64,000 bases of DNA from Lachnospiraceae bacterium (lineage in GTDB: Bacteria > Bacillota > Clostridia > Lachnospirales > Lachnospiraceae). Position numbers and translations under genes: made by a program. Below, in pieces: positions 13,291 through 40,451 of the stretch. Under the pieces are notes generated by a model that was given only the letters and a program-made list of their open reading frames with translations, was not told where the DNA came from and searched no databases. The stretch covers positions 12,509 through 76,508 of the forward strand of contig JBJFCD010000199.1 in the NCBI GenBank assembly GCA_051888795.1, written 5' to 3'. Every line of letters begins with the position of its first letter. Within the stretch, counting starts at the first letter, position 1.

Positions 13291-14034
13291 ATGAAAATGA
13301 AGAGAAGAGGAATAAAAGGAATCTTTCTGGCACTGTTTGTTATTGTGGGAATGTCTTGTCTGCTTCCGGGAAATCAGGCTGAAGCAAAATCCAAGACGAA
13401 AGTGTCCTACAAAAAAGTAACTGAGACGAGAACATGGGAGGCAGATGATGGGACAATCTTAGTTAAGGCAACCTATAAAGGAATTAAGATTAAGGGAAGT
13501 TCATCAGCTGTCAAAAAAATGAACAAAGTTCTGGAAAAAGAAAAGAACCAGTTTTTTAAGACTGCAGCTGAGGCAAAAGAGAATGCACAAAGCGTATATG
13601 AGGATCAGACATATTATAATCCATTTTATGTATCAGAGTTTTATATTAGTTCGAAAGTTACTTTTAATAAAAAAGGTATCGTCAGCATTAAAGAAGTTTA
13701 TGACGGTTATCATAGCGGTGCTGCACATGGGTATTATTATACATATGGTCATACATTTAAAATCAGTTCCGGTAAAGAACTAAAGTTTAATCAGGTTGTG
13801 TCCGGATCAGATAAAACAGATAAGAAAAAGTTGGTTACAGCTTTCAAAAAAATGTATAATAAAGAACCAGACAAATATTTTGAAGATGCTATAGATACAG
13901 TAAGAAGTAGTAACGTGAAAAAACAGCAGTTTTATCTTTCGGGGAAATACGCGATTGCATGCTATGCACCATACAATTTGTCAAGTTTTGCTGAAGGAGA
14001 GACATTAGTGAAAGTGAAACACAGATATAATTAA
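13291..14034 (+). CDS. Secreted DUF4163/DUF3298 (RsiV/PdaC-N-like) protein
   Basis: Signal peptide ending AEA; GYHSGAAHG motif, TF..SGKEL, FY..PY..SSFAEG. Confidence 0.7.
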   Translation: MKMKRRGIKGIFLALFVIVGMSCLLPGNQAEAKSKTKVSYKKVTETRTWEADDGTILVKATYKGIKIKGSSSAVKKMNKVLEKEKNQFFKTAAEAKENAQSVYEDQTYYNPFYVSEFYISSKVTFNKKGIVSIKEVYDGYHSGAAHGYYYTYGHTFKISSGKELKFNQVVSGSDKTDKKKLVTAFKKMYNKEPDKYFEDAIDTVRSSNVKKQQFYLSGKYAIACYAPYNLSSFAEGETLVKVKHRYN

Positions 14035-14098
14035 AATAGTTATTACAGAGGATAACATTAGGAAAACCAATAAAAGAAAAATGTAACGGAGAAAATGA

Positions 14099-14815
14099 AT
14101 GTTGAATATTGTGATTTTTGATGATAATGAGAATGATATAAACATTACATACGATATTATTAATAAATATTTAAAAGATAAAAATAAAGCGGCGGAGATC
14201 CATACGTTTACCGGAAAAGAAGAGGTAATGAATTATATCAAAGAAGTAAGGACAGATGTTATTTTTTTGGATATTCTTGTGGATGATGAGGCTGTGGGAA
14301 TTGAGATGGCAAAGGAGATCAATAGCTTATCAGAGCATACATATATTGTGTTTTTGACAGGATTTCTTCATTATGCAACGGATATTTATGATACAAGACA
14401 TATCTATTATGTATTAAAGCCTGAGCTTACGCAGAGGCTTCCGGGAGTGTTTTCAAAAATTGAAAAAATCATGGATTCAGAAAATACCGGCATTTTTCAT
14501 GTAAAAAAAGGTGTCAATGATCTGATACTGGAAAAGAAAAAAATCAGTTATATAGAAAGGGATCGCAGAATCAGCATTATTCATTATGATGGTCAGACGT
14601 ATTCCGTGAATTATAAGATATCTGATCTTGTGGAAATGCTTGCGCATTCTGATTTTGTAAGATGTCATAATAGCTATATAGTAAATTTGCAGTACGTATC
14701 AAGGCTGGAGAGAAGATTTGTTTTATTAAAGGACGGAACACAGGTGCCAATCAGCAGATCGCGAAATGAGGAAGTAAAAAATCAATTTTTAGAATGGCTG
14801 CAAAAATATATGTAA
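14099..14815 (+). CDS. LytTR family response regulator (AgrA/VirR-like)
   Basis: Receiver DD, FLDI, FLTG, LKP intact; LytTR domain FVRCHNSYIVN..VPISRSR. Confidence 0.95.
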   Translation: MLNIVIFDDNENDINITYDIINKYLKDKNKAAEIHTFTGKEEVMNYIKEVRTDVIFLDILVDDEAVGIEMAKEINSLSEHTYIVFLTGFLHYATDIYDTRHIYYVLKPELTQRLPGVFSKIEKIMDSENTGIFHVKKGVNDLILEKKKISYIERDRRISIIHYDGQTYSVNYKISDLVEMLAHSDFVRCHNSYIVNLQYVSRLERRFVLLKDGTQVPISRSRNEEVKNQFLEWLQKYM

Positions 14816-14827
14816 TGGAGTAAGAAC

Positions 14828-15559
14828 ATGGGTGTTACGATTTGTCTGACTTTGGCAGGAATAGCATTGTTTATGATTGTTTATATAAAGATGCTTCAAA
14901 GAGAAAACAGGAATCTTATTTTACAGGAAAATCTCATAAGGGAGCATTATAGTACACTGGAATATCAAATTGAGCAAACGAGAAGAGTCAGACATGATAT
15001 TGCAAATCATATTTATACAATTGAGCAGCTTATGAAACAAAGCGAAGAAAAAGATACTTTGGCAAACAATTATAAAAATGATCTGGAAAAAACTTATCTG
15101 GTACTTCAGCAAAAAACGTTCTGTGAGGAAATACTCATTGATTCTGCGATCAAGAATAAACTCAGAGAATGCCAGCAAAAGCAGATTAAGACAGACTGTC
15201 AGGTGGAAAAATTGTCTATTGGTGATATTGAAAGAATTGATATGCTTGGGCTCATATATAATGTCTTTGATAATGCAATAGAAGCCTGTGAAAAAGTTGA
15301 GACAAATCGCAGATGGATTAGAGTAACGATAAAAAATGATGGAGCAAAGTTGTTTTTTTTATGCCATAACTCGAAAAATCCAAATTTTTCTCTGAAAGAT
15401 GGACAAAAAACTACAAAAAAGGATCAGGAAAATCATGGAATCGGAAAAGATATCATGAGAAGCATTGTAAAGAAATATCATGGAAGCATTCACGCAGAAG
15501 ATGGAAAAGAGGAATATAAACTGGAAATTGTGTGTAGGTGTAAGGATGAAAAAGTGTAG
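14828..15559 (+). CDS. GHKL histidine kinase (AgrC-type catalytic core) with only one TM helix
   Basis: H-box RHDIANH, N-box NVFDNAIEA, G-box TTK..NHGIG; only about 20 N-terminal hydrophobic residues. Confidence 0.9.
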   Translation: MGVTICLTLAGIALFMIVYIKMLQRENRNLILQENLIREHYSTLEYQIEQTRRVRHDIANHIYTIEQLMKQSEEKDTLANNYKNDLEKTYLVLQQKTFCEEILIDSAIKNKLRECQQKQIKTDCQVEKLSIGDIERIDMLGLIYNVFDNAIEACEKVETNRRWIRVTIKNDGAKLFFLCHNSKNPNFSLKDGQKTTKKDQENHGIGKDIMRSIVKKYHGSIHAEDGKEEYKLEIVCRCKDEKV

Positions 15560-15585
15560 AGAAAAATATATGGAGAATTTTAGAA

Positions 15586-16890
15586 ATGTTTGAAAGTGAT
15601 ATTACATGGATAGAGGCACTGTCACAGCTGTCTCTTACAGTCCCTGTTTATTTTCTTATGAAAAAAACAGTGGGATGTAAAAAAATATGGAAACAAATCC
15701 CATCCTGGTTTCTGCCTGCAATTCTTTATACACTCTGGAATATATATAACGTAATTGTTATTCGTTACCCTCAAATTCTTACAGATATTATATCGGAACA
15801 ATTGGCATATGAACTGCGGGCAGTCTGTGGGATTATATTAATGTTTGTAATTTTGCCAATGATTTATGAAGGAAGGACTCTTGAACGATATTTTTTCTGT
15901 TCATTATTAGAAATCATCTCTCTCTTTAGTGGATTGTTCAGATATGTGTGTATGATGTTATTTAAAATCAGCGGTTTATACTATGTAATGGAAAAAATGG
16001 TTTTTCTTCTTTTGCTTTTCCGTTTGTTCATTGAATGTGCCCCTTATTTTTTTTGCTATTACGTTTTCGAAAAGAATTTTGGAGATTATCGTGTCCTTGT
16101 AAATAAGCACAAAATAGCGTGTAGCGTACTGACAGTAATCATTATTTGTATGGAATCAGGCACTGCTTTTTTTTGCGTGGAAAGAAATTTTCTGGATATC
16201 TGGCGAGGAATTGGGGGAATGGCGTATCTGTTTTTCGTAATTGGAACAGTAATATTTATGTTAAAAAAAGATAATAGACAAATTTATCGGCAGAAGCAGT
16301 TGCTGGAAAATCATTATCAATCCATAAGGAACCAGGAAGAACAGGTAGTGAGCATGCAGTCGGAGATTGGCGAGCTTCTTAAGGCTGCAGAGAAACTTGA
16401 AAAAGAGAAAAAATACAGTGAAGAAGAGTTAAAACACTATGGAGAAGAGTTAAAGAAGTTACACAGTAAACTAAGGCGTGTAGATTACTGTGATAACCTT
16501 ATGCTGGATGCGGTGTTACATAATAAAGAAAAGGAATGTGAAGAGAAAAATATAAAGCTGGATATAAGAATGCAGGATATAAGCTTTGGGGGAGTTTCAG
16601 ATGTAGATATCTTTGAAGTTGTATATGGAATGCTTGAAGTTGCCATAGATCTAGTTGAGATGCAGGAAGATAAAGCTTTGAAGACTATTGTGATCAGCGG
16701 AAAGAATCTGGCAGGGCAAGTGGTGATAGAGGTGTCAATTCCATCTATTGCCTCTAAAAATGGAAAAGTCTTGAGGAAAAGCAGGAATCAATATAAAAGG
16801 CTGAAACGAAAAGCAAAAGTGCTGAGAGGACAGAGTGTTATATGCACTGATAAAGATTATCAGAAGATTGTTTTGGGAATTCCGTGTTGA
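15586..16890 (+). CDS. Multi-TM AgrC-like pseudo-histidine kinase, paralog 1
   Basis: Hydrophobic N-terminal half; LLENHYQSI coiled coil, YCDNLMLDAVLHNKEKEC; no RHD H-box, no N-box Asn, no HGxG. Confidence 0.75.
   Translation: MFESDITWIEALSQLSLTVPVYFLMKKTVGCKKIWKQIPSWFLPAILYTLWNIYNVIVIRYPQILTDIISEQLAYELRAVCGIILMFVILPMIYEGRTLERYFFCSLLEIISLFSGLFRYVCMMLFKISGLYYVMEKMVFLLLLFRLFIECAPYFFCYYVFEKNFGDYRVLVNKHKIACSVLTVIIICMESGTAFFCVERNFLDIWRGIGGMAYLFFVIGTVIFMLKKDNRQIYRQKQLLENHYQSIRNQEEQVVSMQSEIGELLKAAEKLEKEKKYSEEELKHYGEELKKLHSKLRRVDYCDNLMLDAVLHNKEKECEEKNIKLDIRMQDISFGGVSDVDIFEVVYGMLEVAIDLVEMQEDKALKTIVISGKNLAGQVVIEVSIPSIASKNGKVLRKSRNQYKRLKRKAKVLRGQSVICTDKDYQKIVLGIPC
16333..16747 (+). repeat. Direct repeat copy 1 (415 bp, identical by eye to 17712-18126 and 19056-19470)
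   Basis: Line-by-line visual comparison; offset 1379 to copy 2. Confidence 0.9.
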
Positions 16891-16961
16891 TAATTTGAAT
16901 ATTTATGTGATTCAATGTTAACTGAAGAGGAGATGTAAAAGGTGCAGGAGGGTTGTTTGGA

Positions 16962-18284
16962 ATGTTAAGTCAGCCTGATACGAAACTATTAGAAGCACTG
17001 GCACAGGTATTTCTTGTAGTCCCGCTTGTGTTTACAACAGAAAAGACAGTTGGATATAGAAAAATATGGAATCATATACCAACTTGGTTTCTGGCAGGAT
17101 TTATATATTCTATTTGGAATATATATAATGCATTGGTATTATATTATCCCAGGTATATTACAAAAATGATTACGGAAGAGGCTATGCATTTAAGTTGGGC
17201 ACTTGGTGGATTGGTAATGATGTTTGTGATATTGCCCTCCCTTTATAAAGGAACGATAATTGAACGGTATTTTGTCTTTTTTGTATTTGCTTTGACAGAT
17301 TTTTTTGCCAGACTTTTCAGGATGCTTGGTATGGTGATTTTGGAAAAATTCGGATTGTGGTATGTCATACAGAAAGATTGGTTTTTCTTGCTTTTTATTC
17401 GTTTGGTTTTGCAGTCTGGACCATATTTTTTGTTTTATTTCATTTTTAGAAAACAATTTGCAAAATATCATGATTGGGTCATAAAGCATAAAAAATTATG
17501 CAGTGCAGCAACGATATTAGTTGTTGGACTGGAAATCTCGACAGCACTTATGTCAATAGATGCAGAACATTTAGAAAAGCTAAGGTTATTCATAAATCCG
17601 GCAGTTTTGTTTGGAACATTTATGGGGGCAATTTATTTTTTGAAAAGAGAAAATCGTCAAGTTTATCTACAGAAACAACTGCTGGAAAATCATTATCAAT
17701 CCATAAAGAGTCAGGAAGAACAGGTAGTGAGCATGCAGTCGGAGATTGGCGAGCTTCTTAAGGCTGCAGAGAAACTTGAAAAAGAGAAAAAATACAGTGA
17801 AGAAGAGTTAAAACACTATGGAGAAGAGTTAAAGAAGTTACACAGTAAACTAAGGCGTGTAGATTACTGTGATAACCTTATGCTGGATGCGGTGTTACAT
17901 AATAAAGAAAAGGAATGTGAAGAGAAAAATATAAAGCTGGATATAAGAATGCAGGATATAAGCTTTGGGGGAGTTTCAGATGTAGATATCTTTGAAGTTG
18001 TATATGGAATGCTTGAAGTTGCCATAGATCTAGTTGAGATGCAGGAAGATAAAGCTTTGAAGACTATTGTGATCAGCGGAAAGAATCTGGCAGGGCAAGT
18101 GGTGATAGAGGTGTCAATTCCATCTAATACTCATATAAGTGGGAAAGACATAAAGGAAAGCAGGAATCAATATAAGAGGCTGAAACGAAAAGTAAAAGTG
18201 CTGAGAGGACAATGTATACGGAAGATAGAAGGAGAAACGGAAAAGATTGTTGTGGGCATAATGTGCGGCAGTGCAGGCAGATAG
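16962..18284 (+). CDS. Multi-TM AgrC-like pseudo-histidine kinase, paralog 2
   Basis: Same architecture as paralog 1; ATG 16962 after GGAGGG (ORF track starts at TTG 16953). Confidence 0.75.
   Translation: MLSQPDTKLLEALAQVFLVVPLVFTTEKTVGYRKIWNHIPTWFLAGFIYSIWNIYNALVLYYPRYITKMITEEAMHLSWALGGLVMMFVILPSLYKGTIIERYFVFFVFALTDFFARLFRMLGMVILEKFGLWYVIQKDWFFLLFIRLVLQSGPYFLFYFIFRKQFAKYHDWVIKHKKLCSAATILVVGLEISTALMSIDAEHLEKLRLFINPAVLFGTFMGAIYFLKRENRQVYLQKQLLENHYQSIKSQEEQVVSMQSEIGELLKAAEKLEKEKKYSEEELKHYGEELKKLHSKLRRVDYCDNLMLDAVLHNKEKECEEKNIKLDIRMQDISFGGVSDVDIFEVVYGMLEVAIDLVEMQEDKALKTIVISGKNLAGQVVIEVSIPSNTHISGKDIKESRNQYKRLKRKVKVLRGQCIRKIEGETEKIVVGIMCGSAGR
17662..18253 (+). repeat. Direct repeat copy 2 (592 bp, identical by eye to 19006-19597)
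   Basis: Visual comparison; constant offset 1344; translations identical. Confidence 0.9.
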
Positions 18285-18308
18285 TATATGCGAGGGAGAA
18301 TAAGGAAG

Positions 18309-19688
18309 ATGTTCGAGAGTGATGTTACGTGGATAGAAACAATAATAAGATTATCCGCTGTAGTTCCTTTTTGTTTTTTTACCGAAAAATCAGTAGGTTA
18401 CCGAAAAATATGGAAACGGATGCCATCATGGCTTCCGACATCAATTCTTTACTTTATATGGAGTATATATAATGAGTTAATCTTGTCTTATCCGCAGTTT
18501 GTTTGTAATTTTGTCTCAGAGACAGTAGCATATAAAATCTGGGCGGTCGGTGGACTAATGTTAATGTTAGTGATTTTTCCATGGTTTTATAAAGGTTCAA
18601 TCATAGAGAAATATTTTGTTTGTTTTGTGATAGAAGTGATTTCAATTTTTTGTTATCTTTGCAGAGGCGTCGGCATGCTTTTTGTTAAAAGCATTAGATT
18701 GTATAATATTTTTGAAAAAACTGTTTTTTCATTATTTTTTTTACGATTGGTTTTAGAATATATGCCGTGTTTTCTATGCTATTTTATTTTTAAAAAACAG
18801 TTTAAAAATTACCATACTTATGTTTGGAAACATAAAAAGGTATGTTGTGTGGCAGCAATATTTACTGTCGGAGCAGAGACAGTTACTGCGCTTGTTACGA
18901 TAAGTAAAGATTTCTTAGAAAACTGGAGAGCGATCGCAAACCCTATTATCCTTTTTGGAGCAATTGGAATTACAATTTATCTGTTAAAAAGAGAGAATGA
19001 AAGGATTTATCTACAGAAACAACTGCTGGAAAATCATTATCAATCCATAAAGAGTCAGGAAGAACAGGTAGTGAGCATGCAGTCGGAGATTGGCGAGCTT
19101 CTTAAGGCTGCAGAGAAACTTGAAAAAGAGAAAAAATACAGTGAAGAAGAGTTAAAACACTATGGAGAAGAGTTAAAGAAGTTACACAGTAAACTAAGGC
19201 GTGTAGATTACTGTGATAACCTTATGCTGGATGCGGTGTTACATAATAAAGAAAAGGAATGTGAAGAGAAAAATATAAAGCTGGATATAAGAATGCAGGA
19301 TATAAGCTTTGGGGGAGTTTCAGATGTAGATATCTTTGAAGTTGTATATGGAATGCTTGAAGTTGCCATAGATCTAGTTGAGATGCAGGAAGATAAAGCT
19401 TTGAAGACTATTGTGATCAGCGGAAAGAATCTGGCAGGGCAAGTGGTGATAGAGGTGTCAATTCCATCTAATACTCATATAAGTGGGAAAGACATAAAGG
19501 AAAGCAGGAATCAATATAAGAGGCTGAAACGAAAAGTAAAAGTGCTGAGAGGACAATGTATACGGAAGATAGAAGGAGAAACGGAAAAGATTGTTGTTGG
19601 ACTTACATGTTTTTGTGGAAATTATGAGCAAAATGAGGATGATTATGATAAAATGGTCAGTAAAGGAACAGCTTGTGATAAACGCTAG
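18309..19688 (+). CDS. Multi-TM AgrC-like pseudo-histidine kinase, paralog 3
   Basis: Same architecture; MFESD start at 18309 matches paralog 1 (ORF track starts at 18288). Confidence 0.75.
   Translation: MFESDVTWIETIIRLSAVVPFCFFTEKSVGYRKIWKRMPSWLPTSILYFIWSIYNELILSYPQFVCNFVSETVAYKIWAVGGLMLMLVIFPWFYKGSIIEKYFVCFVIEVISIFCYLCRGVGMLFVKSIRLYNIFEKTVFSLFFLRLVLEYMPCFLCYFIFKKQFKNYHTYVWKHKKVCCVAAIFTVGAETVTALVTISKDFLENWRAIANPIILFGAIGITIYLLKRENERIYLQKQLLENHYQSIKSQEEQVVSMQSEIGELLKAAEKLEKEKKYSEEELKHYGEELKKLHSKLRRVDYCDNLMLDAVLHNKEKECEEKNIKLDIRMQDISFGGVSDVDIFEVVYGMLEVAIDLVEMQEDKALKTIVISGKNLAGQVVIEVSIPSNTHISGKDIKESRNQYKRLKRKVKVLRGQCIRKIEGETEKIVVGLTCFCGNYEQNEDDYDKMVSKGTACDKR
19006..19597 (+). repeat. Direct repeat copy 3
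   Basis: Matches 17662-18253. Confidence 0.9.
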
Positions 19689-19717
19689 ATAATGATTTAA
19701 ACACCGGAGGAAATGAT

Positions 19718-21127
19718 ATGCAGTATATTTCAAAAGGATATTTTATGTGGGTGACATTATTCATACCACTGTATTTTGAAAATGCATATTTTAATATGCT
19801 TCAGGCAAAAGGGCATATTTATATTGTTGGCGCGGCGCTTTATTTGTTAAGCATTGCTTTTTTGTGTGTGATAAAAAAGAGTGTGAAGGATTGTCTCCCT
19901 GGTAAGAGCGTGTTAGACTGGAGCGTTTTTCTCCTGGGGATTACAGCGCTTCTTTCCTGCCTGTTGTCGGAAGATATGAAGGCTTCTTTTTGGGGCAGTA
20001 ATGGATGGTGGGTTGGAGCATTTGTGTTTTTGACTTTTGCCCTTTTTTATCAGGTTCTATCTAAAAATCTGCAATTAAATCAGAATATATGGCTTCCGGT
20101 GTTGATCGTAAATATGTTTATTTTTGTCATGGGAATATTGCATTCTGCACGAATTGATGTTTTATCTTTGCATGAAAATATATATCCAAAGCAGTATTAC
20201 TGGTATATATCTACAATTGGAAATACGAATTGGTATGTAGGGTATCTTTGTCTTATAATTCCTTTGGTACTTGTATTTTACCTTGAATGTGAGGATGTGT
20301 TTTCACGGAGAATCTATTTTGTGTTTCTGGCGTTAGCATGTATCAATATTGTGTTATGTGGGAGCGACGGAATTTATTTGGGATTTGGGATCTGCGCTTT
20401 TTTTTCTATTCCGTATATTGTTGCTGAGGAAAAAAGAGTGTGCAGAATGTTCGAAGTACTTATCTGTTATGGAGGCGGATTACTGCTTGTAAGGTTCTGC
20501 CCGGTCTTTGCGGGGAAGTTGGCTGATATAGAAGGATTGTCAAAAATATTTCTCAGACCTGCATTTTCAATTACGCTTGTTCTTGTATCGTTATGCGGAA
20601 GGATTCTTGCAAAAAAAAGATGGGGAAAACTGGATAAAAAATGTAAGAATGCAGTAACTGCTATCTTGGAAATGATGCTAGGTGTCTGTGCAGCGGTTTT
20701 CCTTTTTCGGGCAATTTGTAATTTTGGAGAAAGTTGGGGAACAAACCGAGGAAGAACATGGAAATATTGTGCAGAGTTATTTCAGACGTTTTCTGTAAAG
20801 CAAAAGTTGTTTGGAGTTGGTCCGGAGATGCTGAAAACATATTTTGAAGAGCTTTCGACACATTTTTCCAGACAGATCCTTGTAGCCCACAGTGAACTGA
20901 TGCAGCTTCTAATGACAATAGGGGTGCTGGGATTGTTATGCTGGCTCTTAATGTGGGGAAGCGTTGTAGGCAGTTATTTTAAAAATAAAATCTGGAAAAA
21001 AGGAAACATTGCATTTTTACTGCCACTAATTGCTTATCTGGGACAGTCACTGGTGAACAGTCCGCAGACTACAAATGTGGCGCTGCTATGTGTTCTTATG
21101 GCGTGTTACAGAAAAAGTGAAATATAG
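19718..21127 (+). CDS. O-antigen ligase / O-oligosaccharyltransferase-like membrane protein (Wzy_C type)
   Basis: About 12 TM helices; STIGNTNW, GTNRGRTW, FGVGP, AHSELMQLLMTIG motifs typical of the family. Confidence 0.7.
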   Translation: MQYISKGYFMWVTLFIPLYFENAYFNMLQAKGHIYIVGAALYLLSIAFLCVIKKSVKDCLPGKSVLDWSVFLLGITALLSCLLSEDMKASFWGSNGWWVGAFVFLTFALFYQVLSKNLQLNQNIWLPVLIVNMFIFVMGILHSARIDVLSLHENIYPKQYYWYISTIGNTNWYVGYLCLIIPLVLVFYLECEDVFSRRIYFVFLALACINIVLCGSDGIYLGFGICAFFSIPYIVAEEKRVCRMFEVLICYGGGLLLVRFCPVFAGKLADIEGLSKIFLRPAFSITLVLVSLCGRILAKKRWGKLDKKCKNAVTAILEMMLGVCAAVFLFRAICNFGESWGTNRGRTWKYCAELFQTFSVKQKLFGVGPEMLKTYFEELSTHFSRQILVAHSELMQLLMTIGVLGLLCWLLMWGSVVGSYFKNKIWKKGNIAFLLPLIAYLGQSLVNSPQTTNVALLCVLMACYRKSEI

Positions 21128-21186
21128 AGCCAGATTAGTGGGGAACACGTTTGGAATTTTATATAAATAAAAATCAGATAATTATG

Positions 21187-21217
21187 TCGGGGTGGATTTT
21201 GTCCACCTCGATTTTTT
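21187..21217 (+). terminator. Type-A hairpin, probable intrinsic terminator
   Basis: TCGGGGTGGA-TTTTG-TCCACCTCGA followed by a T-run. Confidence 0.7.
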
Positions 21218-21224
21218 GTCTTTC

Positions 21225-21294
21225 GTGCAAATTGTGACAAAAATGAGGTTGATTTTGCAGGAGTGATCAGTAATGAAATATTTTGTGATAAACT
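21225..21294 (+). promoter_or_regulatory. Promoter P1: putative LytTR direct repeat plus extended -10
   Basis: CAAATTGTG-12-TTGATTTTG, 31 bp gap, then TGA-TAAACT. Confidence 0.65.
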
Positions 21295-21335
21295 CAGAAT
21301 AAAGAAAACGGTAAATCTCAAAGGAGGAAAAAGGA

Positions 21336-23975: not shown

Positions 23976-23994
23976 GAATAATCTGAAGGGTGTG

Positions 23995-24019
23995 TCGAGG
24001 TGGATTTTGTCCACCTCGA
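23995..24019 (+). terminator. Type-A hairpin (perfect 10-bp stem) without downstream promoter module
   Basis: TCGAGGTGGA-TTTTG-TCCACCTCGA. Confidence 0.65.
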
Positions 24020-24054
24020 TCTTGATTTTATTATTTTGTGAAGAGGTGACAATA

Positions 24055-28092: not shown

Positions 28093-28111
28093 TTTCAAAA
28101 AAAAGAGGTGA

Positions 28112-28143
28112 AAAGGGTGTGCGTCGAAAGATGCATACCCTTT
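28112..28143 (+). terminator. Type-B hairpin, probable terminator
   Basis: AAAGGGTGTGCGTC-GAAA-GATGCATACCCTTT. Confidence 0.7.
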
Positions 28144-28153
28144 CTAATCTCCT

Positions 28154-28223
28154 GTGCAAATTGTGGCAAAAATGAGGATAATTATGCTGTAAAAAAAATC
28201 AAAAGTAAATCATGTGGTACAAT
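28154..28223 (+). promoter_or_regulatory. Promoter P2: putative LytTR direct repeat plus extended -10
   Basis: CAAATTGTG-12-ATAATTATG, 31 bp gap, TGG-TACAAT. Confidence 0.65.
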
Positions 28224-28254
28224 GATTACAAAACTATTAAATGGGGTGGCAATT

Positions 28255-28771
28255 ATGTGTGGGAGAATTTATTCTAAAAGAAGAATGTTTTTAACTTTAA
28301 TCATTATGGCATGATTAAATCCTATGATATTTACATAAATAAGAAAGTGTTTCTATCTATAATACCCAGCACGAGAGAGGACGATACATTTTCACCGAGA
28401 GCCGCAATTTATAGATATAAGGGAAAAAAGCGTGTTCTTTGGGAGGCATTACCTTTAATTTGATTTACAAATATAGTAAAGGTAAATCAGTACAAAATGC
28501 GACAAAGATATTCTATAGTAGCTGGTCAGGACAATATGGTTTGCCTGCTAATCGTTCGATGACAGTTTATAATTCACCAAATTCTGGTAAAAAGGTTAAA
28601 ACAGTGGTAAAAGGGCAGATGATTACAATTGATAAATTATATATTAATTCAAAGTGTACAGTCATTTATTTGCATGTGAAATTGCAAAGTGGGAAGACAG
28701 GCTGGGAAAAAGGATTGAAAGATACTTTTACTGAAAATAAAATGTTTCAAGAAGTTGAGTATGCCAGATAA
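28255..28771 (+). pseudogene. Fragmented gene for a secreted protein with an SH3-like C-terminus
   Basis: RBS GGGGTGG and ATG 28255 give a truncated signal peptide (stop 28314); second fragment 28311-28463 and third 28439-28771 are in different frames. Confidence 0.55.
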
Positions 28772-28804
28772 ATACTAATATGAAAAAAACAAGGAGGATA
28801 CAAA

Positions 28805-29488
28805 ATGAAGTTAAAAAGGATGTTGCCATTTTTTATTCTGATTGGGAGTCTGCTTCTGATAAGCTGTTCAAGTGATTCTGCTTTAAAAGAAAACTCATCA
28901 GAAGAGCAACAAAACATTGAACAAACTGAAGAATCTAATGAGAATGAAGTTGAGACTGATACGGAAGAAGAGGCTGAGAATACAGAAGATAATAACAATG
29001 TTGAGAATCAGGGAAATGATACCGAAAAGAATCAGGAATCTTCTATGTCTGAATTTGACAAAAAGATAGAAGAAATACGTCAGAATTATGATGAAATAAA
29101 AAATAATCTTTCAAAAATGCAAAAATTTGATGCGGGAGAAGTTGTGCAATATTTGCAAAACGATAAGATTAGAAAGATAGTTGCACCTCCGGGGACATAT
29201 GATCAGATGGATGGTTATGGTGATCTTGAAGATTATACAGCAGAGTATTATTATACGAAAGATGAAAGACCTGTGTTTGTATTTGTATATAATAAAAAAG
29301 AACAATATCGATTTTATATACAGGTAAGCGAAGAAACTATGTCAAAATGTATTCGGTATATTGATGAAAACGGTGTTGTTCATGATTATCCGGAAGGTAA
29401 GGCTGTAGATGAGATTGAGGAAATTTCAAAAGTAGGCGGATTCTTTATGCTGGCGTATCAGGAATTACACTGGGCAGGACGATTATAG
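28805..29488 (+). CDS. Lipoprotein with acidic linker and uncharacterised C-terminal domain
   Basis: Lipobox LISC; E/N-rich spacer; domain shared with 37921-38694. Confidence 0.8.
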   Translation: MKLKRMLPFFILIGSLLLISCSSDSALKENSSEEQQNIEQTEESNENEVETDTEEEAENTEDNNNVENQGNDTEKNQESSMSEFDKKIEEIRQNYDEIKNNLSKMQKFDAGEVVQYLQNDKIRKIVAPPGTYDQMDGYGDLEDYTAEYYYTKDERPVFVFVYNKKEQYRFYIQVSEETMSKCIRYIDENGVVHDYPEGKAVDEIEEISKVGGFFMLAYQELHWAGRL

Positions 29489-29549
29489 TAGAGGTTCTTG
29501 ATCAAAAAGAAGAGGGAGCACAAAAAGGCTAAAATAGGTTGATTTTTTC

Positions 29550-29577
29550 GAGGTGGATTTTGTCCACCTCATTTTTT
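29550..29577 (+). terminator. Type-A hairpin, probable terminator
   Basis: GAGGTGGA-TTTTG-TCCACCTC followed by ATTTTTT. Confidence 0.7.
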
Positions 29578-29584
29578 CTCTCCT

Positions 29585-29654
29585 GTGCAAATTGTGACAA
29601 AAATCATGTCGATTTTGAAACAGGCAGCAGTATGAGAGGGATATATGGTAAAAT
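29585..29654 (+). promoter_or_regulatory. Promoter P3: putative LytTR direct repeat plus extended -10
   Basis: CAAATTGTG-12-TCGATTTTG, 31 bp gap, TGG-TAAAAT. Confidence 0.65.
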
Positions 29655-29698
29655 TGAGATAAATTTATAGAACGGGAAAAGTCGATGGGAGGAGAAAA

Positions 29699-35600: not shown

Positions 35601-37759
35601 CTGAAGCAGTGTGGGATGATGGTACTGGAGATTATATGCCGGAAATTGAAACAGATGGGTCAAATATTTGGATTGCCTGGATGAATGCAAATCGAAAGTT
35701 TGGGGATGATGCGGAATTTACAAACCTTCTTCCTGCAATGGAAATTGCCATTGCAAGATTTGATGGAAATGGCTTTACAGAATGTAAAAATATTACAAAC
35801 AACACTTCCTATGACTGCATGCCATCGCTTGTTATAAAAAATGGAGCAGGTTATATCAGTTGGATACAGAACACATCAAATAATGCGTTATGTAATGATA
35901 GTACTAATAACGTGTTCGCATATTCGCTCGAAGACGAAAATACAACAGAATTGGCAAGTGGAATTTCTAATATCAAAGACTTTGAGGCGGGAATTCTTTC
36001 AGAGAGCAATGTTGTGACTTATATAACCGATGGTGATGGAAATTACACGACAACTGATGATACGAGTATGTATGTAATGAATTTTTCCGGCAAGAAACTG
36101 TTTTCTTACGAAGGGAAGAATAATCTGTCACAACCTTATTACTATAATGGAAATTTGATTTGGAGCGAAGCAAACGGACTAAAATGCCTGAAAAATGTGT
36201 CCGCAACGGAAGAAAATTTCCTTGGATTTTCCGGATATGTAAACAGTGAATATCAAATATTGGAAAATGAAAATTATATTTATATTTTGTTATTAAATAA
36301 TGCTGATCAGGAAAATTCAAATGATACGGTAAATGTAGAGTCATTTGTTTACACATACGATAAAACCGCAGAAGTATGGAATAAAGCAACTCAGCTGACA
36401 GATTTGAATACAGGAGTACAGAGCACAAACGGATTCTTTACATCGGATGGAAAAATTGGTCAGATAATTACCGCAAATGAATATGTTTCCGATAATACGG
36501 CAAATGTCATGAGTATTTATTCCACGGTATCCGAATTATATTCTGATTATGAATTGGCAGATTTGTATTATGACGATGCAATAATTACAGATGAAGGCTA
36601 TGAATTAGATGTAGATGCAACAATTCAAAATATTGGTCAATTGAAAGGCGGAAGCTATAAGGTTGAATTAGTTCAGGGCGAAAACGTACTTGCAAGCCAG
36701 ACCTTTGATGATGGCATTATGGCAGGAGAAAGTGTGGAACAGACAATAAGATTCAGTTTCTCTGATGCTATATCACATAATAGTGAATATAAGGTGGTAG
36801 TTTCAGTAGAAGATGATCCAGATCAAAGTAATAATACACAGCTTATTTCATTAGGAAAGATGGATGTGGCAGTTAACTATTCATTACTTGAATATGGCGA
36901 AAAACAGGATAAATACAGATTAGCTGTATCGGTTACTAACCAGGGTATTATTACTACGGATGCGATTCTGAAATTATATTGTATGAGTACAGAAAATGAG
37001 GCATTTCAGACAATAGATATTCCGTCTCTTCGGGCAGGGCAGACAAGGATGTATATTGTTGATCTGGATATAGACGAGGCCGACTATGTAAATAATAAAT
37101 ATAGAGTTTACATGGTTGCAGAGACATCGTTGGATGATTCCAATATATTAAATAATACAGATTATGTGCTTATGATGAAGAATGTCGAGAAAGAACCGGA
37201 AGAGAATATAGAAGTTCCGGAAAAAGATACTCCGGTAAAAGTATCTAAGATCACGCTTTCCGGTATATCAAAGCAAATCGCAGCAGGAAGGAAAATAAAA
37301 CTGACGGCGAGTGTTCTTCCGTCTAACGCAACGAATAAAGCCGTAACATGGAAATCCAGTAATACGAAGGTTGCTACAGTTACTCAGTCAGGTGTTGTTA
37401 CGATGAAGAAAGGATCCGGCGGCAAATCGGTTACGATCACAGCAACGGCAAAAGATGGAAGTGGTGTAAAAGCAACTTACAAGATTAAATCCATGAAAGG
37501 AGTTGTAAAAAAGGTTTCCATTTCCGGAAGCAAGTCTGTAAAAGCAGGAAAATCATTGAAATTAAAGGCGAAAGTGACAGCTACAAAGAGTGCGAATAAG
37601 AAACTGAAGTGGACAAGTAGCAATACAAAGTATGCTAAGGTAAGCAATTCCGGAAAAGTGACAACATATAAGGCGGGAAAAGGAAAGAAAGTTAAGATTA
37701 CTGCAATGGCGACGGATGGAAGCGGAAAGAAAAAGACTGTGACGATTAAGATTACATAA
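29699..37759 (+). CDS. Giant surface protein C (2686 aa): BspA-type LRR_5 repeats, VWA domain, propeller/CARDB-like regions, two C-terminal Big_2
   Basis: Signal peptide; IP..V..IG..AF..C..L repeats; MIDAS DHSWS..T..MTDG; TIQNIG..AGESVE CARDB-like; Big_2 tail identical to protein B. Confidence 0.85.
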   Translation: MMKKKRYIAIVLTMVMLVLSTSESMITFAETNETTGEIESVDESDSVTAKEYEKMLEQKKEEEEKKEEQKVADVLQESSADGIKTIAEISDYFIYRGEGFVEDSEITEKSKKFGNIEKYYDSVEKVIEYLSKKFISQKTSIEFGYQSKEIDYKKELESIIGASCEEIQEDRYPQEISCYLQGEYDKQSGAYKYHVILETQYQLESVAEENALDQKSQDDSVTEESNQMKSLMTLSEEEPINESSEKDTSDETDTTEEPEEVTWKFDSESSTLTISGSGTMENYENASSVPWYDDRENVKNVVIADTVTGIGDYSFSGCSNLVSADIPDSVISLGKNAFYGCTSLASVQLPDSIESIGFQAFASCTSLGEINIPLNWKECPSTDGSTSDIEHRGRIFIGCESLVEITVPEGMTVIPSYGFNGSDYLETINLPNTLTEIKNHAFFGCKKIKIMEIPESVAGVIGKSAFCQCTSIEQMELSEGITELQSFAFDGCVALKKVVLPDSIEKIGYKAFIGCKSLTDINIPLSWNECPSWDGSTIDTDHCGLIFQGCEALVEITIPEGMTAIPSFGFNGSDYLETVNLPDTLTEIKNHTFFNCKKLKNIEIPESVEGVIGKSAFCYCSSLEGIVLPSGIAELQLYAFNECTALEKVILPDSIKKIGYRTFYGCKVLSDINIPLNWNECPSWEESTIDTDHCGQIFKGCTALTEITIPEGMTAIPSFGFNGSDYLETVNLPDTLTEIKNHTFFGCKKLKNVEIPKNVTGVIGKSAFNQCASIEQIELPEGITGLQGYAFYYCTSLNNIILSEELKSVGDYAFYYCTGLKTIDLKNIEQLGEYTFSKSGLTSITIENITNLGFRSFENCKSLDEIFFNATSYQLTYNTGGYSTFTGCGSGVGKMKVTIGPEATYISALFTGCSNLTDIVMPDNVTKIGVYAFYNCKNLKDVTMPKQLTAIGTKAFYNCSALDKIEINSDITVSSDAFTGAQMNELALGENVMSLESAFYQKIPIGNFEVNEGNTSYTSDKGVLYDKGKQILLCFPNKSDITKCSIPESVTQITDYAFYNNSVLEEVEFLEDAETDVVTMEVSEGLNIGKYAFSGCNSIAQVTMPASLNSMGDYALADCSSLEAVHFKGNAPQMSSNVFQNDYTALGYRDGTDGWTEETFKSDMAKKGIVIINEDEKYDRVCVLLLDHSWSMDGDPLKNMKEAATAFCNNILNKMKYKTALCIVPFCGTSKAFGFSSDKNDIKSYINNIECDNSTNIYDAALSANRFLKMVNADEKNIMLMTDGIPITGSVSNDGPYTSSDIATYYKYANAVYNLVKSFSAGYRIFTVGFFSELSESEQKFAKKFLEDLSTHGYYDATEIEDITTKFEEIAAGINGDTYLNMKEDECAFYFYDAETGESLSNVSFMYGLERYESDKEGFAKISVSLFERTAKTLSFTKTGYNTEKESIVLKQGEVYPIGLTKEAEVPTVYRCDLQYEGDTSYIDIVKNEVSLYYDDKDVFSLTVTAGYKGGEIKSYAIKQAGKILKSNNTGCFEKLTASDFKSGDNNIVIEVEGEKGDKYSYSTKLSVYGESEEVQEKIDLGKGLSCTVPINFPIVGGVKIDLDYLVDLPIQFSVEGKKVKIVVNVGTVSTNEKNNSKGIFDKDSWNMLKTLAENKKDISRFSSWLNTNSYGWNARYMKQMQAKVGPGSLKMDVYGYLEGELSDSGQLKDIENIKGAIVIKCTAKAETENQILLSPPIIIKVGIKGGVEGDWGVSMSKISTLGDLKLTGKVTLSVSVSAGVGIGYAKIMSLTGNGEGTLSYSRQFDQGYNKAELKGKLYLTANILGFTTDVSPQFLQGGPWTIYEEYDNEVKQSKNVETKGNNVNPLNIIMDENEYEVAERTYLETQSEWNKGVAVNKEMASLSVDDKESGMTILQSSVYDDPQMRLVQTDDVTMMVFLSDDADRDAVDRTKLVYSIYDEESDTWSTPEAVWDDGTGDYMPEIETDGSNIWIAWMNANRKFGDDAEFTNLLPAMEIAIARFDGNGFTECKNITNNTSYDCMPSLVIKNGAGYISWIQNTSNNALCNDSTNNVFAYSLEDENTTELASGISNIKDFEAGILSESNVVTYITDGDGNYTTTDDTSMYVMNFSGKKLFSYEGKNNLSQPYYYNGNLIWSEANGLKCLKNVSATEENFLGFSGYVNSEYQILENENYIYILLLNNADQENSNDTVNVESFVYTYDKTAEVWNKATQLTDLNTGVQSTNGFFTSDGKIGQIITANEYVSDNTANVMSIYSTVSELYSDYELADLYYDDAIITDEGYELDVDATIQNIGQLKGGSYKVELVQGENVLASQTFDDGIMAGESVEQTIRFSFSDAISHNSEYKVVVSVEDDPDQSNNTQLISLGKMDVAVNYSLLEYGEKQDKYRLAVSVTNQGIITTDAILKLYCMSTENEAFQTIDIPSLRAGQTRMYIVDLDIDEADYVNNKYRVYMVAETSLDDSNILNNTDYVLMMKNVEKEPEENIEVPEKDTPVKVSKITLSGISKQIAAGRKIKLTASVLPSNATNKAVTWKSSNTKVATVTQSGVVTMKKGSGGKSVTITATAKDGSGVKATYKIKSMKGVVKKVSISGSKSVKAGKSLKLKAKVTATKSANKKLKWTSSNTKYAKVSNSGKVTTYKAGKGKKVKITAMATDGSGKKKTVTIKIT
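30809..32130 (+). repeat. Three in-frame 453-bp (151-aa) LRR super-repeats
   Basis: NIPLxWxECP anchor at 30809, 31262 and 31715. Confidence 0.85.
37344..37754 (+). repeat. Second copy of the 411-bp Big_2 anchor repeat
   Basis: Matches 27677-28087. Confidence 0.9.
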
Positions 37760-37782
37760 TTTCAAAAAGAAAAGAGTTGTAT

Positions 37783-37814
37783 AGGGTGTGTGTCGAATGA
37801 TGCATACCCTTTTC
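37783..37814 (+). terminator. Type-B hairpin, probable terminator
   Basis: AGGGTGTGTGTC-GAAT-GATGCATACCCT followed by TTT; G-U compatible variants relative to the 28112 copy. Confidence 0.7.
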
Positions 37815-37823
37815 TGGTCTCCT

Positions 37824-37892
37824 GTGCAAATTGTGACAAAAATGAGGTTAATTACGCAGTTAAAAAATCAAAAAGGAATTATATGATATAAT
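37824..37892 (+). promoter_or_regulatory. Promoter P4: putative LytTR direct repeat plus extended -10
   Basis: CAAATTGTG-12-TTAATTACG, 30 bp gap, TGA-TATAAT. Confidence 0.65.
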
Positions 37893-37920
37893 TAAAATCA
37901 GATTAAGGGAAAGGAGTATT

Positions 37921-38694
37921 ATGCTTATGCTAAAGAAACATTGGAAAAGAATCTTTTTTGCGATGGCAGTATTTTGTATGGCAGCGATTGTACAGACAAC
38001 AACACCGCAGATTCATGGACTTAATACGGTGCAAGCTGCAACAAAAGTAAAACTAAATAAAAGTAAAGCATCATTGGTTAAAGGACAGACCACACAATTA
38101 AAGGTGCAGGGAACAAAGAAAAAAGTTAAATGGACGTCATCGAAGAAGAGCGTAGCTACGGTTTCTTCTAAGGGAAAAGTAACTGCAAAAAGAAAAGGAA
38201 AAGTTACAATAACAGCAAAAATTGGAAAAAGGAAATATACATGTAAAATAACTGTATATGCAACTAAGGCAGATAAGGTTATTGCTAACTCCAGAGCATA
38301 TTATTACGGTACAAATAAAAAAATAAAGGATGGTACATATAAGAACTGTGGAATAGACGGTGTTTATAAAGAATACTTAGGCAGTAACCAGAAAATCAGA
38401 CTTACAATTATGTATCCGGGAAATGGTGATATGGATATCAATCATTACACTGTGGAGTACTATTACGATAAGAATGAGAAACTTGTTTTTGCGTATGCGT
38501 ATAAAAAAGTGAATGGTAAGCTTAAAGATTACCGGGCATATTATGGTACAGATGGAAAATGTTATCGCTATATAGAAAGCGATGGAACGGTAAAAACATA
38601 TAAGAATGGAAAAAATTTGGATGAATGTAATGAAATGGTTCAATTACTGTATAATAAGGGTTCTTGGAACATTATTGTGGCTAATGGAGGCTAA
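37921..38694 (+). CDS. Secreted protein: N-terminal Big_2 plus uncharacterised domain
   Basis: Signal peptide; KLNKSKASLVKGQTTQLKV..WTSSKKSVATVSSKGKVTAK. Confidence 0.8.
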   Translation: MLMLKKHWKRIFFAMAVFCMAAIVQTTTPQIHGLNTVQAATKVKLNKSKASLVKGQTTQLKVQGTKKKVKWTSSKKSVATVSSKGKVTAKRKGKVTITAKIGKRKYTCKITVYATKADKVIANSRAYYYGTNKKIKDGTYKNCGIDGVYKEYLGSNQKIRLTIMYPGNGDMDINHYTVEYYYDKNEKLVFAYAYKKVNGKLKDYRAYYGTDGKCYRYIESDGTVKTYKNGKNLDECNEMVQLLYNKGSWNIIVANGG

Positions 38695-38737
38695 CAGGTA
38701 ATTGACAAAAAGAAAAGTGAGAAAGGAGAATAGAGTT

Positions 38738-40036
38738 ATGAGAAGAATGAAAACGAAAATATTAGAGCTTATGACAGTTTTGTTTCTCGTACTGTTAATC
38801 TGTCCGGCAATGACGGCAAAAGCAGACGATAATGAATATTGGATTTCAAAGAGAAATTTTAAAGAAACAGTATATATGCCTATAGGAAATCAGAAAAAAG
38901 ACGGCATATGTATGCACTTGAATTTGCCTGCCAACTCAAAAAATTATAAGGTGTCAGTAAATAATAAAAAGCTTTTAAAAGCAAAAATGCAGTATGGAGT
39001 ATTGGTTTTATATCCTAAAAAGACAGGAACTGTAAAAGTGACAGTCACTGCAGTTTCTAATGGGAAAAAAGTTAAAAGTAAAGGTACAATTAAACTGGTA
39101 AAATATGAAAATCCATTCAAGACCTTGAAAATTGGAGGAAAGAGTTATCGTAAAAAAATAACTATGAGATGTATCCACGATGGATTTAATATTGCAAATA
39201 AAACTTCCATGAAGATCAATTACAAATTAAAATCTGGATGGAAATTTGTCTCGAAAGACGTAGCTATAGAAGACGAAGAAGGAAATGTTAAGAGCTGGAA
39301 TATTAAAAATGGGAAAACGTATACATGGCCTAAAGGAAACGATATGCAGGTGTATATGATTTTGAAAAATAAAAAGCATGGTGGTTTAGTTTATGTCAAT
39401 TTAGAATTTTACCATACGGAAGATTTTGAGACGGCTACAGTAAAAACACAGTATCGTTATTGTGATAAAATTACAACAACCAGCACTTCATCCAGTTTAA
39501 GTGGATGGACATTATATGATACAACTACTGAGTGGGGAAGCTGGGGCAATTGGAGTGCATGGAGTGCAACTGCTCAGACGGCAAGTGATTCAAAGCAAGT
39601 GGAGACAAGAAAAGAGTATCGTTATTATTGCTTCTACTGTCCGGTATGTGGTGGTCGGGAACCGCTTCAGGGAGCCAGTGATTGTAAGAAATACACATTG
39701 TCAGCAAGTAACTGGCAGGAAAAATGGTTCCCTATAGCATATTCAAGTTCAAATTCCTCTACATATTCTTATGCGACATATAAGAGATACACGACATCTC
39801 TGGGAGACGGATTAAGATGGAATTTTAGTAGTGGAAATTTAAATTCTACAGCAGTTGGTACAATAGATTCGGATTCTTCTGCAGTCGTTATCAGAAATGC
39901 GTACCGTTATCGCACCAGAACGAAAAATACGATTTATCATTTCTATAAATGGGGCAATTGGAGTGCGTGGAGTGATACAAAATATACACCAACTGCGAAC
40001 CGGAAAGTAGAGACAAGGACAGTAACAGTGAAGTAA
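38738..40036 (+). CDS. Secreted protein, apparently chimeric, with two WGNWSAWS motifs and a CxxC
   Basis: Signal peptide; Lys-rich N-half ending at about EFYH; Thr/Ser/Trp-rich C-half; ATG 38738 after AAGGAG. Confidence 0.65.
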   Translation: MRRMKTKILELMTVLFLVLLICPAMTAKADDNEYWISKRNFKETVYMPIGNQKKDGICMHLNLPANSKNYKVSVNNKKLLKAKMQYGVLVLYPKKTGTVKVTVTAVSNGKKVKSKGTIKLVKYENPFKTLKIGGKSYRKKITMRCIHDGFNIANKTSMKINYKLKSGWKFVSKDVAIEDEEGNVKSWNIKNGKTYTWPKGNDMQVYMILKNKKHGGLVYVNLEFYHTEDFETATVKTQYRYCDKITTTSTSSSLSGWTLYDTTTEWGSWGNWSAWSATAQTASDSKQVETRKEYRYYCFYCPVCGGREPLQGASDCKKYTLSASNWQEKWFPIAYSSSNSSTYSYATYKRYTTSLGDGLRWNFSSGNLNSTAVGTIDSDSSAVVIRNAYRYRTRTKNTIYHFYKWGNWSAWSDTKYTPTANRKVETRTVTVK

Positions 40037-40091: not shown

Positions 40092-40109
40092 AATTATAGT
40101 TTAATATGG

Positions 40110-40418: not shown

Positions 40419-40451
40419 TATGCTTTTTTATCATTACAGGAGGTGGAGACA

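Follow-up and report, generated by a model that had tools for sequence, protein, structure and literature searches.

In a 64,000-nt stretch of a Lachnospiraceae bacterium genome (contig JBJFCD010000199.1, positions 12,509 to 76,508; hereafter the window), a block at 13291-40036 carries a signalling operon followed by an array of genes for exported proteins. We lean, with moderate confidence, towards reading this locus as a three-component system of the AgrC/ComD type (HPK10 kinase plus LytTR regulator), in which sensing and catalysis would lie on different proteins and which would steer a regulon of exported proteins. A preliminary description of this DNA had named a LytTR regulator, a sensor-less kinase, three catalytically dead receptor paralogs and units of surface proteins, all of which lie where it placed them. 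Comparison of sequences across lineages gives good support to a regulon link between the trio of regulator, kinase and receptor genes, a promoter motif and the exported-protein genes. The signalling operon (14099-21127) consists of six tightly packed genes and ends in a hairpin:

14099-14815, + strand: response regulator with a receiver domain (Asp58) and a LytTR domain (Pfam LytTR 2.1e-18, Response_reg 1.1e-9)
14828-15559, + strand: short, sensor-less GHKL histidine kinase of 243 amino acids (aa) (HATPase_c_5 6.7e-17, 61.7 bits against a cut-off of 22)
15586-16890, + strand: receptor pseudokinase paralog 1, 434 aa (His replaced by Ser259, Asn by Val352, no G2 box)
16953-18284, + strand: receptor pseudokinase paralog 2, 443 aa (440 aa in the gene caller's version)
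18288-19688, + strand: receptor pseudokinase paralog 3, 466 aa, whose C-terminal tail reads through a decayed copy of the promoter motif
19718-21127, + strand: polytopic Wzy_C/O-antigen-ligase-like protein, 469 aa, with ~11-12 transmembrane (TM) segments, the last gene of the operon
21186-21212, + strand: terminator-like hairpin of type A, ending the operon (repeat family D9)

The Asp58 of the regulator was read from the sequence in the context FLDI, and the nearest NCBIfam models (BtsR, LytR and AgrA) all score far under their cut-offs. The sole hydrophobic segment of the short kinase, residues 2-20, leads directly into the DHp helix, which is followed by the catalytic and ATP-binding (CA) domain. 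Its H box (RRVRH56DIANH), N box (DN149AIEA) and G2 box (HGIG) are intact, and all three boxes are present in every short-kinase orthologue. The 243-aa protein thus has the sequence features of an active HPK10 / HATPase_c_5 histidine kinase and is predicted to be one.

Each of the three paralogs comprises 6-7 hydrophobic segments, a DHp-like hairpin without the His and a degenerate CA domain. No model of Pfam (HATPase_c_5 included) or NCBIfam matches any of them, and a sequence profile search of the PDB gave no significant match. The paralogs align with the short kinase without gaps over 136 residues (28% identity, E 3e-18), from the juxtamembrane segment KRENxxxxLQ..L..HY to the N box, a stretch that takes in the DHp and the first part of the CA domain. 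At the catalytic positions all eight members of the family read QSEIG (Ser for His) and LEVAI (Val for Asn), with no GxG, so that the three paralogs would not qualify as active HPK10 / HATPase_c_5 kinases. An AlphaFold2 model of residues 226-434 of paralog 1 (predicted local distance difference test score, pLDDT, 79; predicted template modelling score, pTM, 0.68) contains a helical hairpin followed by an alpha/beta domain. When this model was compared with the PDB by Foldseek, the 50 best matches were without exception histidine-kinase cores, among them DesK (8e-8), AgrC (6e52_B, with the best TM-scores, 0.64/0.59), HK853, CusS and RetS. The model thus predicts a histidine-kinase core fold for the cytoplasmic half. 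As the kinase fold is kept and the catalytic residues are lost, the paralogs would be true pseudokinases.

The eight pseudokinase homologues are 47-70% identical and share >90 invariant positions, which are densest in the cytoplasmic half. These shared positions, together with the same catalytic-site substitutions in all eight, argue that the paralogs are not debris and that the family is probably under constraint. The three paralogs are also mosaics. Their TM/sensor halves are 38-45% identical, with saturated synonymous divergence (dS 1.3-2.7) and a ratio of nonsynonymous to synonymous divergence (dN/dS) of 0.16-0.41. The cytoplasmic halves of paralogs 2 and 3 are 100% DNA-identical from the TM/coiled-coil junction onward, with a sharp border, and all three paralogs are DNA-identical over ~400 nt of the cytoplasmic module. 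This pattern points to gene conversion confined to the cytoplasmic module, as is expected if all three receptors must fit one partner. Taken with a duplicated anchor-terminator-promoter module among the surface-protein genes (see below), it supports the earlier proposal that both arrays evolve by module shuffling.

Two features of paralog 3 were observed in addition. The public gene call is 279 aa long (the C-terminal 60%), though the window has an open frame of 466 aa; the difference reflects either the gene caller's choice of start or a repeat region that differs between assemblies. The C-terminal tails of the last pseudokinase here (…NYEQNEDDYDK) and in the related locus L001 (…NYDQNEVDYDK) are translated decayed motif copies. 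The pseudokinase frame appears to have run on into a former promoter, which would be the trace of an old duplication at this junction.

The loss of all catalytic motifs and the lack of any Pfam or NCBIfam match would also fit functionless, decaying duplicates of an AgrC-like kinase, and the exact repeats of 415-592 bp, a triple array seen in one draft genome alone and the 279-aa product called for paralog 3 would fit an assembly artefact. We regard this explanation as very improbable. The reading frames of the paralogs are intact, QSEIG and LEVAI are kept across homologues of 47-70% identity with the cytoplasmic half the most conserved, and the TM halves are under purifying selection. The architecture is kept at 23% identity in another genus, ~40 further clusters at 50% identity consist of full-length proteins lacking both His and Asn, and the sensor halves clearly belong to three different genes, in whichever order these stand.

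The promoter motif GTGCAAATTGTGACAAAAAT occurs in four copies at <=1 mismatch in the window, as against 0.04 expected by chance, and each copy sits just behind a terminator hairpin. A decayed copy with its -10 element lies at the 3′ end of paralog 3:

21225-21294, + strand: promoter U1; motif 21225-21259, extended -10 TGATAAACT at 21286-21294 (69.6 bits, E 8.6e-19)
28114-28223, + strand: type-B hairpin (28114-28143) and promoter U2; motif 28154-28188, extended -10 TGGTACAAT at 28215-28223 (63.6 bits)
29550-29654, + strand: type-A hairpin (29550-29570) and promoter U3; motif 29585-29619, extended -10 TGGTAAAAT at 29646-29654 (58.7 bits)
37783-37892, + strand: type-B hairpin and promoter U4; motif 37824-37858, extended -10 TGATATAAT at 37884-37892 (61.3 bits)
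19613-19682, + strand: decayed motif and -10 (TGATAAACG), located within paralog 3 at its 3′ end and upstream of the Wzy_C-like gene (E 1.1e-6 genome-wide, also E 3e-8; 30.8 bits)

The -10 hexamer within the TGnTAnnnT element begins 64, 64, 64 and 63 nt from the motif start at U1 to U4, in agreement with the preliminary description, which had noted a LytTR-style repeat at a fixed distance from the -10 in four units. When nine sites were aligned, the 35-nt block and the TGnTAnnnT extended -10 were the only invariant elements, with the hexamer 63-65 nt from the motif start, and no conserved -35 box was found among them. Within the motif, the 9-mer at positions 6-14 (AATTGTGAC in U1) recurs 21 nt further on at positions 27-35 (GATTTTGCA in U1), giving direct repeats in a 9-12-9 arrangement. 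Among the offsets of 13-29 nt, a repeat signal appeared at 21 alone (5.4 of 9 matches vs 2-3.8). LytTR sites are described as 9-bp direct repeats with a 12-bp spacer, placed 4-11 bp upstream of the -35 and often accompanied by a TGn -10 (PMC6193735). In the present motif, the proximal repeat stops ~6 bp short of the expected -35 position. By this layout, the motif is predicted to be part of a LytTR-dependent promoter.

Several other readings of the motif were rejected. The GG/GC spacing of a sigma-54 promoter is not kept, there is no TGTGA-N6-TCACA palindrome of the CRP type, and an inverted repeat TGCAAAT/ATTTTGCA is not conserved across the sites. No family reached its gathering score when the block was scanned with Rfam, so the motif is not a known RNA element.

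A profile scan of the genome returned five strong sites, four of which are those of the window, in addition to the decayed copy and one site at E 0.003; the hexamer is at 63-64 nt in each. The two sites outside the window are as follows:

Contig C167, 47553-50535 (L026 2054-5036): fifth strong site (53.9 bits), before the gene for a 952-aa Lectin_C + LRR_5 + Big_2 protein
Contig C66, from 25103 downwards, minus strand: site at E 0.003, whose motif start and TGATAAAAT are exactly 64 nt apart

The 952-aa protein carries the same C-terminal Big_2 module as the proteins of the window, and the C66 site precedes the gene for a 304-aa lipoprotein, followed by another secreted-protein gene. Every motif site in this genome thus stands before an exported-protein gene. 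A half-site on contig C243 was discarded, being without the second repeat and the -10. Separately, the AT-rich metagenome contig Ga0247841_10000512 contains a motif-like 35-mer, TCAAATTGTGACAAAAAAGAGATTAATTTGTA (L025 630-664); neither a gene nor a properly spaced extended -10 follows it.

Related loci were searched for with the pseudokinase and the short kinase as queries. The pseudokinase family is rare: 5 foreign homologues were found among 5.8 billion proteins, the locus was found in one of 185,579 species genomes, and neither 400 other genera of the family nor a same-genus genome gave a close match. Six other lineages have regulator, short kinase and pseudokinase in this order (L001, L003, L004/L042-44, L039/40, L041 and L045). 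Their short kinases are 56-82% identical where compared, and the regulator orthologues are 68-80% identical in L001, L003 and L004 (74% in the L004 lineage). The motif directly follows the pseudokinase gene in five lineages, namely four of these six (L001, L003, L045 and L039/40) and L002, which begins inside the pseudokinase gene. In these motifs the extended -10 is at 64-65 nt (E 1e-14 in L045, E 3e-8 in L039/40). The genes behind the motif differ between lineages:

L001: a Lectin_C + Big_2 protein
L002: a remnant of a C2-like gene
L003 (two motif copies): a 113-aa protein without a family, then a DUF6273 + Flg_new + Big_2 protein
L045: an NlpC/P60-like protein with a signal peptide
L039/40: two proteins, one secreted and of 213 aa, the other an LRR_5/Big_2 protein of 2875 aa

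In four of the five lineages the motif is thus followed by a gene for a secreted or surface protein, and in L002 by a decayed remnant of one. L001 also holds a relic at 8171-8224 that is equivalent to the decayed copy at 19613-19682. The same-genus genome G081 has neither the trio nor the motif. These results agree with the claim that the signalling genes are tied to a surface repertoire, in that the trio keeps its order in six lineages and, in four of these, is followed by the motif and exported-protein genes. The co-occurrence that the preliminary description had proposed to check in relatives was seen in the five lineages with the motif and, in its absence of both, in G081; it failed in the L004 lineage, which has the trio with neither a recognisable motif nor an adjacent surface gene.

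In L039, an IS110-family transposase pair (7790-9009) lies directly upstream of the trio, and a small HTH_3 gene (12269-12487) on the opposite strand stands between the motif promoter and its targets, so that the activated transcript would be antisense to it. An HTH_3 gene adjoins the trio in L001 and L039 and has no counterpart in the window locus; it was not retained as a part of the system.

From these data we propose the following mechanism. One operon would supply a REC-LytTR regulator, a 243-aa kinase made of a membrane anchor, a DHp and an active-looking ATP domain, and three receptors with 6-7 TM segments. Each receptor would pair with the kinase in a mixed DHp bundle or higher oligomer. 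The contact would be made by the juxtamembrane coiled coil and the DHp hairpin, which are homologous in receptor and kinase (KRENxxxxLQxxLxxHY...); the homology of the coiled coil and the homogenised cytoplasmic halves are supporting hints of such heterodimerisation. A ligand-driven shift of the receptor helices would then set the kinase/phosphatase balance of the short kinase. The diverged sensor halves suggest that the three receptors take different inputs, and gene conversion may keep their transmitter halves identical in DNA, since all three have one kinase to dock on. Phosphotransfer would run from His56 to Asp58, and a regulator dimer would bind the two 9-bp direct repeats, 12 bp apart (AATTnTGnC / rATTnTGyA), and recruit RNA polymerase to promoters that have an extended -10 and no -35 box. 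The regulon switched on in this way would comprise the four adjacent units and, elsewhere in the genome, the Lectin_C/LRR/Big_2 protein and the lipoprotein operon.

Several observations weigh against this mechanism. Most LytTR systems autoregulate, and no motif was found before the regulator operon in the window or in L001-L004 and L039-L045. The L004 lineage (L004, L042-44) has the trio, located after addBA as in the window and followed by unrelated genes, without an adjacent surface gene or a convincing motif in its metagenome-assembled genome (MAG); the matches to the motif in the L004 MAG do not, on inspection, resemble sites. The three-gene array with its exact repeats of 415-592 bp is known from one draft assembly alone, and such repeats are hard to assemble from short reads. 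The full-length AlphaFold2 model of paralog 1 is poor (pLDDT 62) and gave no significant fold match. No ligand, peptide precursor or AgrB was found: AgrB (PF04647) was missing from the 90%-complete genome, which is weak evidence given that control genomes barely gave matches and that small peptide genes could be missed. Finally, the only His and the only ATP site of a mixed dimer are on one chain, so that activation would need autophosphorylation in cis. AgrC autophosphorylates in trans; a mixed dimer would be inactive if this holds family-wide, and the receptors would then be brakes.

The lack of an autoregulatory site and the trio without a motif in the L004 lineage could also mean that the motif is not the regulator's site at all. 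In that case it would belong to a promoter/terminator cassette spread by local duplication, with another reader or none, and the signalling genes would be mere neighbours. The local repeats fit such a cassette, as U2 and U4 lie inside a 93%-identical duplicated block that includes the 3′ gene end and the terminator and U1 and U3 share a hairpin; so does the occurrence of a motif-like 35-mer in an unrelated-looking metagenome contig. We nevertheless consider this improbable, since the motif is kept where the flanks differ, across kinases of 57-82% identity and on two other contigs, and is missing, along with the trio, from the same-genus genome. The 9-12-9 layout and its position relative to the -10 are moreover typical of LytTR sites, and promoters without a -35 need an activator.

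The topology of the mixed dimer bears on the direction of regulation. If the pseudokinases were dominant-negative in the manner of RetS, they would hold the regulon off by capturing the short kinase in dead heterodimers or by promoting its phosphatase state, and a signal would free the kinase for active homodimers; three such brakes would form an AND gate, not an OR gate. A heterodimer with one His and one ATP site on the same chain would indeed be inactive if autophosphorylation were in trans, RetS kinase cores are among the Foldseek matches, and RetS inhibits GacS through DHp heterodimers (cited in PMC12675982). In FasBCA and RocA/CovS, however, the pseudokinase partner is required for or enhances output, and an anchor-only kinase would be constitutively on without receptors, a poor fit to a costly regulon of giant surface proteins. 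Braking is unlikely, if the most serious of the alternatives, and activation through the receptors is the direction that we tentatively prefer.

The split organization may extend beyond these lineages. At 23-32% identity, another genus (L011) has the genes in this same sequence, and variants are present in two more (L013 and L008). An exhaustive profile search yielded 620 proteins at E <= 0.001. Among the best 150 of these 620 matches, 49 of 98 full-length proteins are without His, Asn and G2, and the short proteins (~230-270 aa) include 18 with all three boxes, 8 with His only and 7 with the ATP site only. Genome G036 encodes both a 448-aa protein with N and G2 boxes and no His (L024) and a 255-aa protein with His and no N or G2 (L006). 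The complementary defect classes in the profile search suggest that split AgrC-type kinases are a broad theme, and they hint at several kinds of naturally split kinases in Clostridia. More tentatively, and at somewhat less than even odds, the locus may be a plug-in receptor array with swappable sensor halves and a common docking half held identical by gene conversion, in which the receptors compete for or co-assemble with one kinase and so integrate unrelated signals. It would then be part of a large undescribed class of split HPK10 kinases in Clostridia and other Firmicutes.

Searches of the literature on LytTR regulators with pseudokinases or with Lachnospiraceae found no description of this layout. 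Even so, the statement in the preliminary description that no such system had been described has to be given up as far as the principle is concerned, in view of the precedents FasBCA (PMC12675982) and RocA/CovS (PMC7028121). FasBCA(X) of Streptococcus pyogenes (group A Streptococcus), set alongside here by its description, is the closest: two 6-TM kinase-like membrane proteins and a ComE/LytTR-type regulator share an operon and divide the labour, and the Fas output affects adhesins and secreted factors. The TM domains of FasB are dispensable and its kinase domain is needed, whereas FasC can do without its kinase domain; FasC has been proposed to be a pseudokinase that does the sensing, FasB and FasC associate as a heterodimer or higher oligomer, and FasA is ComE-like (PMC12675982). 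In contrast, the catalytic subunit here (243 aa, 1 TM) is without a sensor, and the sensor subunit has lost every catalytic motif. His56, the phospho-acceptor, belongs to the catalytic subunit here, with Ser in the receptors; in the Fas system the sensor carries this His (FasC H246). There are three receptor paralogs instead of one, and the predicted output is direct activation of protein-coding promoters instead of an sRNA. By this analogy, the locus would be a natural variant, with several receptors, of the kind of split kinase described for streptococcal FasBCA, whose principle is already known. What appears to be new is that the split is complete at the sequence level, that the His is on the catalytic subunit, that the receptor is triplicated with a homogenised transmitter half, and that a surface-protein regulon is the predicted direct output.

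RocA is likewise a 6-TM pseudokinase, with a DHp and a degenerate CA domain, and acts solely via its partner CovS in the membrane (PMC7028121). Both cases involve a polytopic pseudokinase (six TM in RocA, 6-7 here) that works, or here would work, through a partner kinase. CovS, however, is a full sensor kinase with its own input, CovR is of the OmpR type, rocA is unlinked to covRS, and RocA keeps a (dispensable) His. RetS-GacS of Pseudomonas aeruginosa and DivL-CckA of Caulobacter offer a further likeness, in that a kinase-like protein whose own phosphotransfer is unneeded controls a true kinase by contact between the cores; they differ in kinase class, regulator and organism, their partners are full sensors, and RetS is inhibitory. 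A kinase without an input domain that relies on a separately encoded membrane protein is also found in BceS-BceAB and LiaS-LiaF. The accessory proteins BceAB and LiaF are transporters or unrelated membrane proteins, not kinase homologues.

AgrCA, ComDE and PlnBCD share with the locus the HATPase_c_5 kinase class, a polytopic sensor, a REC + LytTR regulator and 9-12-9 repeats at activator-dependent promoters, and AgrC is the best structural match of the pseudokinase half by TM-score. Sensor and kinase form one polypeptide in those systems and are separate proteins here. Those systems also have a dedicated peptide pheromone with processing or export genes (AgrB/AgrD or ComAB/ComC) and positive autoregulation, whereas neither such genes at the locus nor a site of its own before the operon was found here. 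With its split kinase and without pheromone genes or an autoregulatory site having been found, the locus is not an agr/com system. Nor is it a LytTR regulatory system of the HdrRM/BrsRM type (PMC6193735), since the regulator has a receiver domain. HdrRM and BrsRM pair a receiver-less regulator with a small membrane inhibitor and are autoregulated; the partners of the regulator are kinase homologues here, and no autoregulatory site was found.

The units of exported proteins downstream of the signalling operon are separated by terminator-like hairpins, one before each unit:

21336-23975, + strand: exported 879-aa protein with a C-terminal Big_2 pair (signal peptide, Pfam)
23994-24020, + strand: hairpin separating the 879-aa gene from the 1345-aa gene; no motif follows it
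24055-28092, + strand: exported 1345-aa protein with DUF6273, Big_13 and a Big_2 pair, without a motif promoter of its own
28805-29488, + strand: lipoprotein-like protein, 227 aa
29702-37759, + strand: exported 2685-aa protein with a signal peptide, BspA-type leucine-rich repeats (LRR), VWA and a C-terminal Big_2 pair (Pfam LRR_5 1.6e-164, VWA_2 3.5e-9, Big_2 2.8e-19)
37921-40036, + strand: two exported proteins, of 257 aa with Big_2 and of 444 aa without a family

A module of ~640 nt, made up of the 3′ end of a Big_2 gene, the type-B hairpin and the motif promoter, is duplicated 9.67 kb apart (27568-28208 and 37235-37878; 83-93% identity), and the type-A hairpin recurs at 21186, 23994 and 29550. 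The unit junctions are thus, to judge from these repeats, evidently recombination-prone. Site-specific inversion of the shufflon kind was considered for the repeated junctions and rejected, as all repeats are direct and the block holds no recombinase gene. Two smaller observations concern individual units. In the 879-aa protein, five tandem 15-nt units (23007-23107) encode WDDED repeats. The U2 leader runs for ~580 nt (28224-28805) before the lipoprotein gene and contains a TTG-started open reading frame of 110 aa (28439-28771) without a signal peptide, which resembles a fragment of an SH3-type domain and is probably a gene remnant.

The gene for the O-ligase-like enzyme of the preliminary description is present in the signalling operon, and its family assignment stays below threshold: against Pfam Wzy_C the product scores 29.9 bits, with a cut-off of 31.7 (E 5.7e-7), and no NCBIfam model matches it. 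The gene was not found in the related loci and is specific to this genome.

All genes of the block are on the + strand, and its G+C content of 32-37% is below the 40-44% of the flanks. Its borders and the first gene inside it are as follows:

9508-13161: addA, the left border of the block
13291-14034, + strand: secreted PdaC/DUF3298-like protein, 247 aa (Pfam matches weak, below the cut-off)
40108-40388: T-box leader and terminator, the right border of the low-G+C block (RF00230, E 2e-15; its 71 bits do not reach the gathering score, 93)
40416-41918: trpE, behind the T-box leader

The PdaC/DUF3298-like gene is kept in L001, replaced by an amidase in L003 and missing in L004; it is probably a neighbour outside the core.

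The way in which a bacterial pseudokinase signals to its partner is just beginning to be understood, from FasBCA and RocA/CovS, whose proteins still resemble complete kinases. The locus described here would amount to a natural deletion experiment, with a sensor subunit devoid of catalytic residues and a catalytic subunit devoid of a sensor. Three sensor variants on one identical transmitter, together with a compact, sequence-defined regulon as the read-out, would make it a testable system. It opens the questions of how a signal passes from a dead to a live core, whether the receptors sum or gate their inputs, and whether gene conversion holds the interface while the inputs diversify. Little is known of the surface biology of Lachnospiraceae and its regulation, and the locus suggests that large adhesin-like surface proteins (BspA-LRR, VWA, lectin and Big_2) are under environmental control in this gut member of the family.

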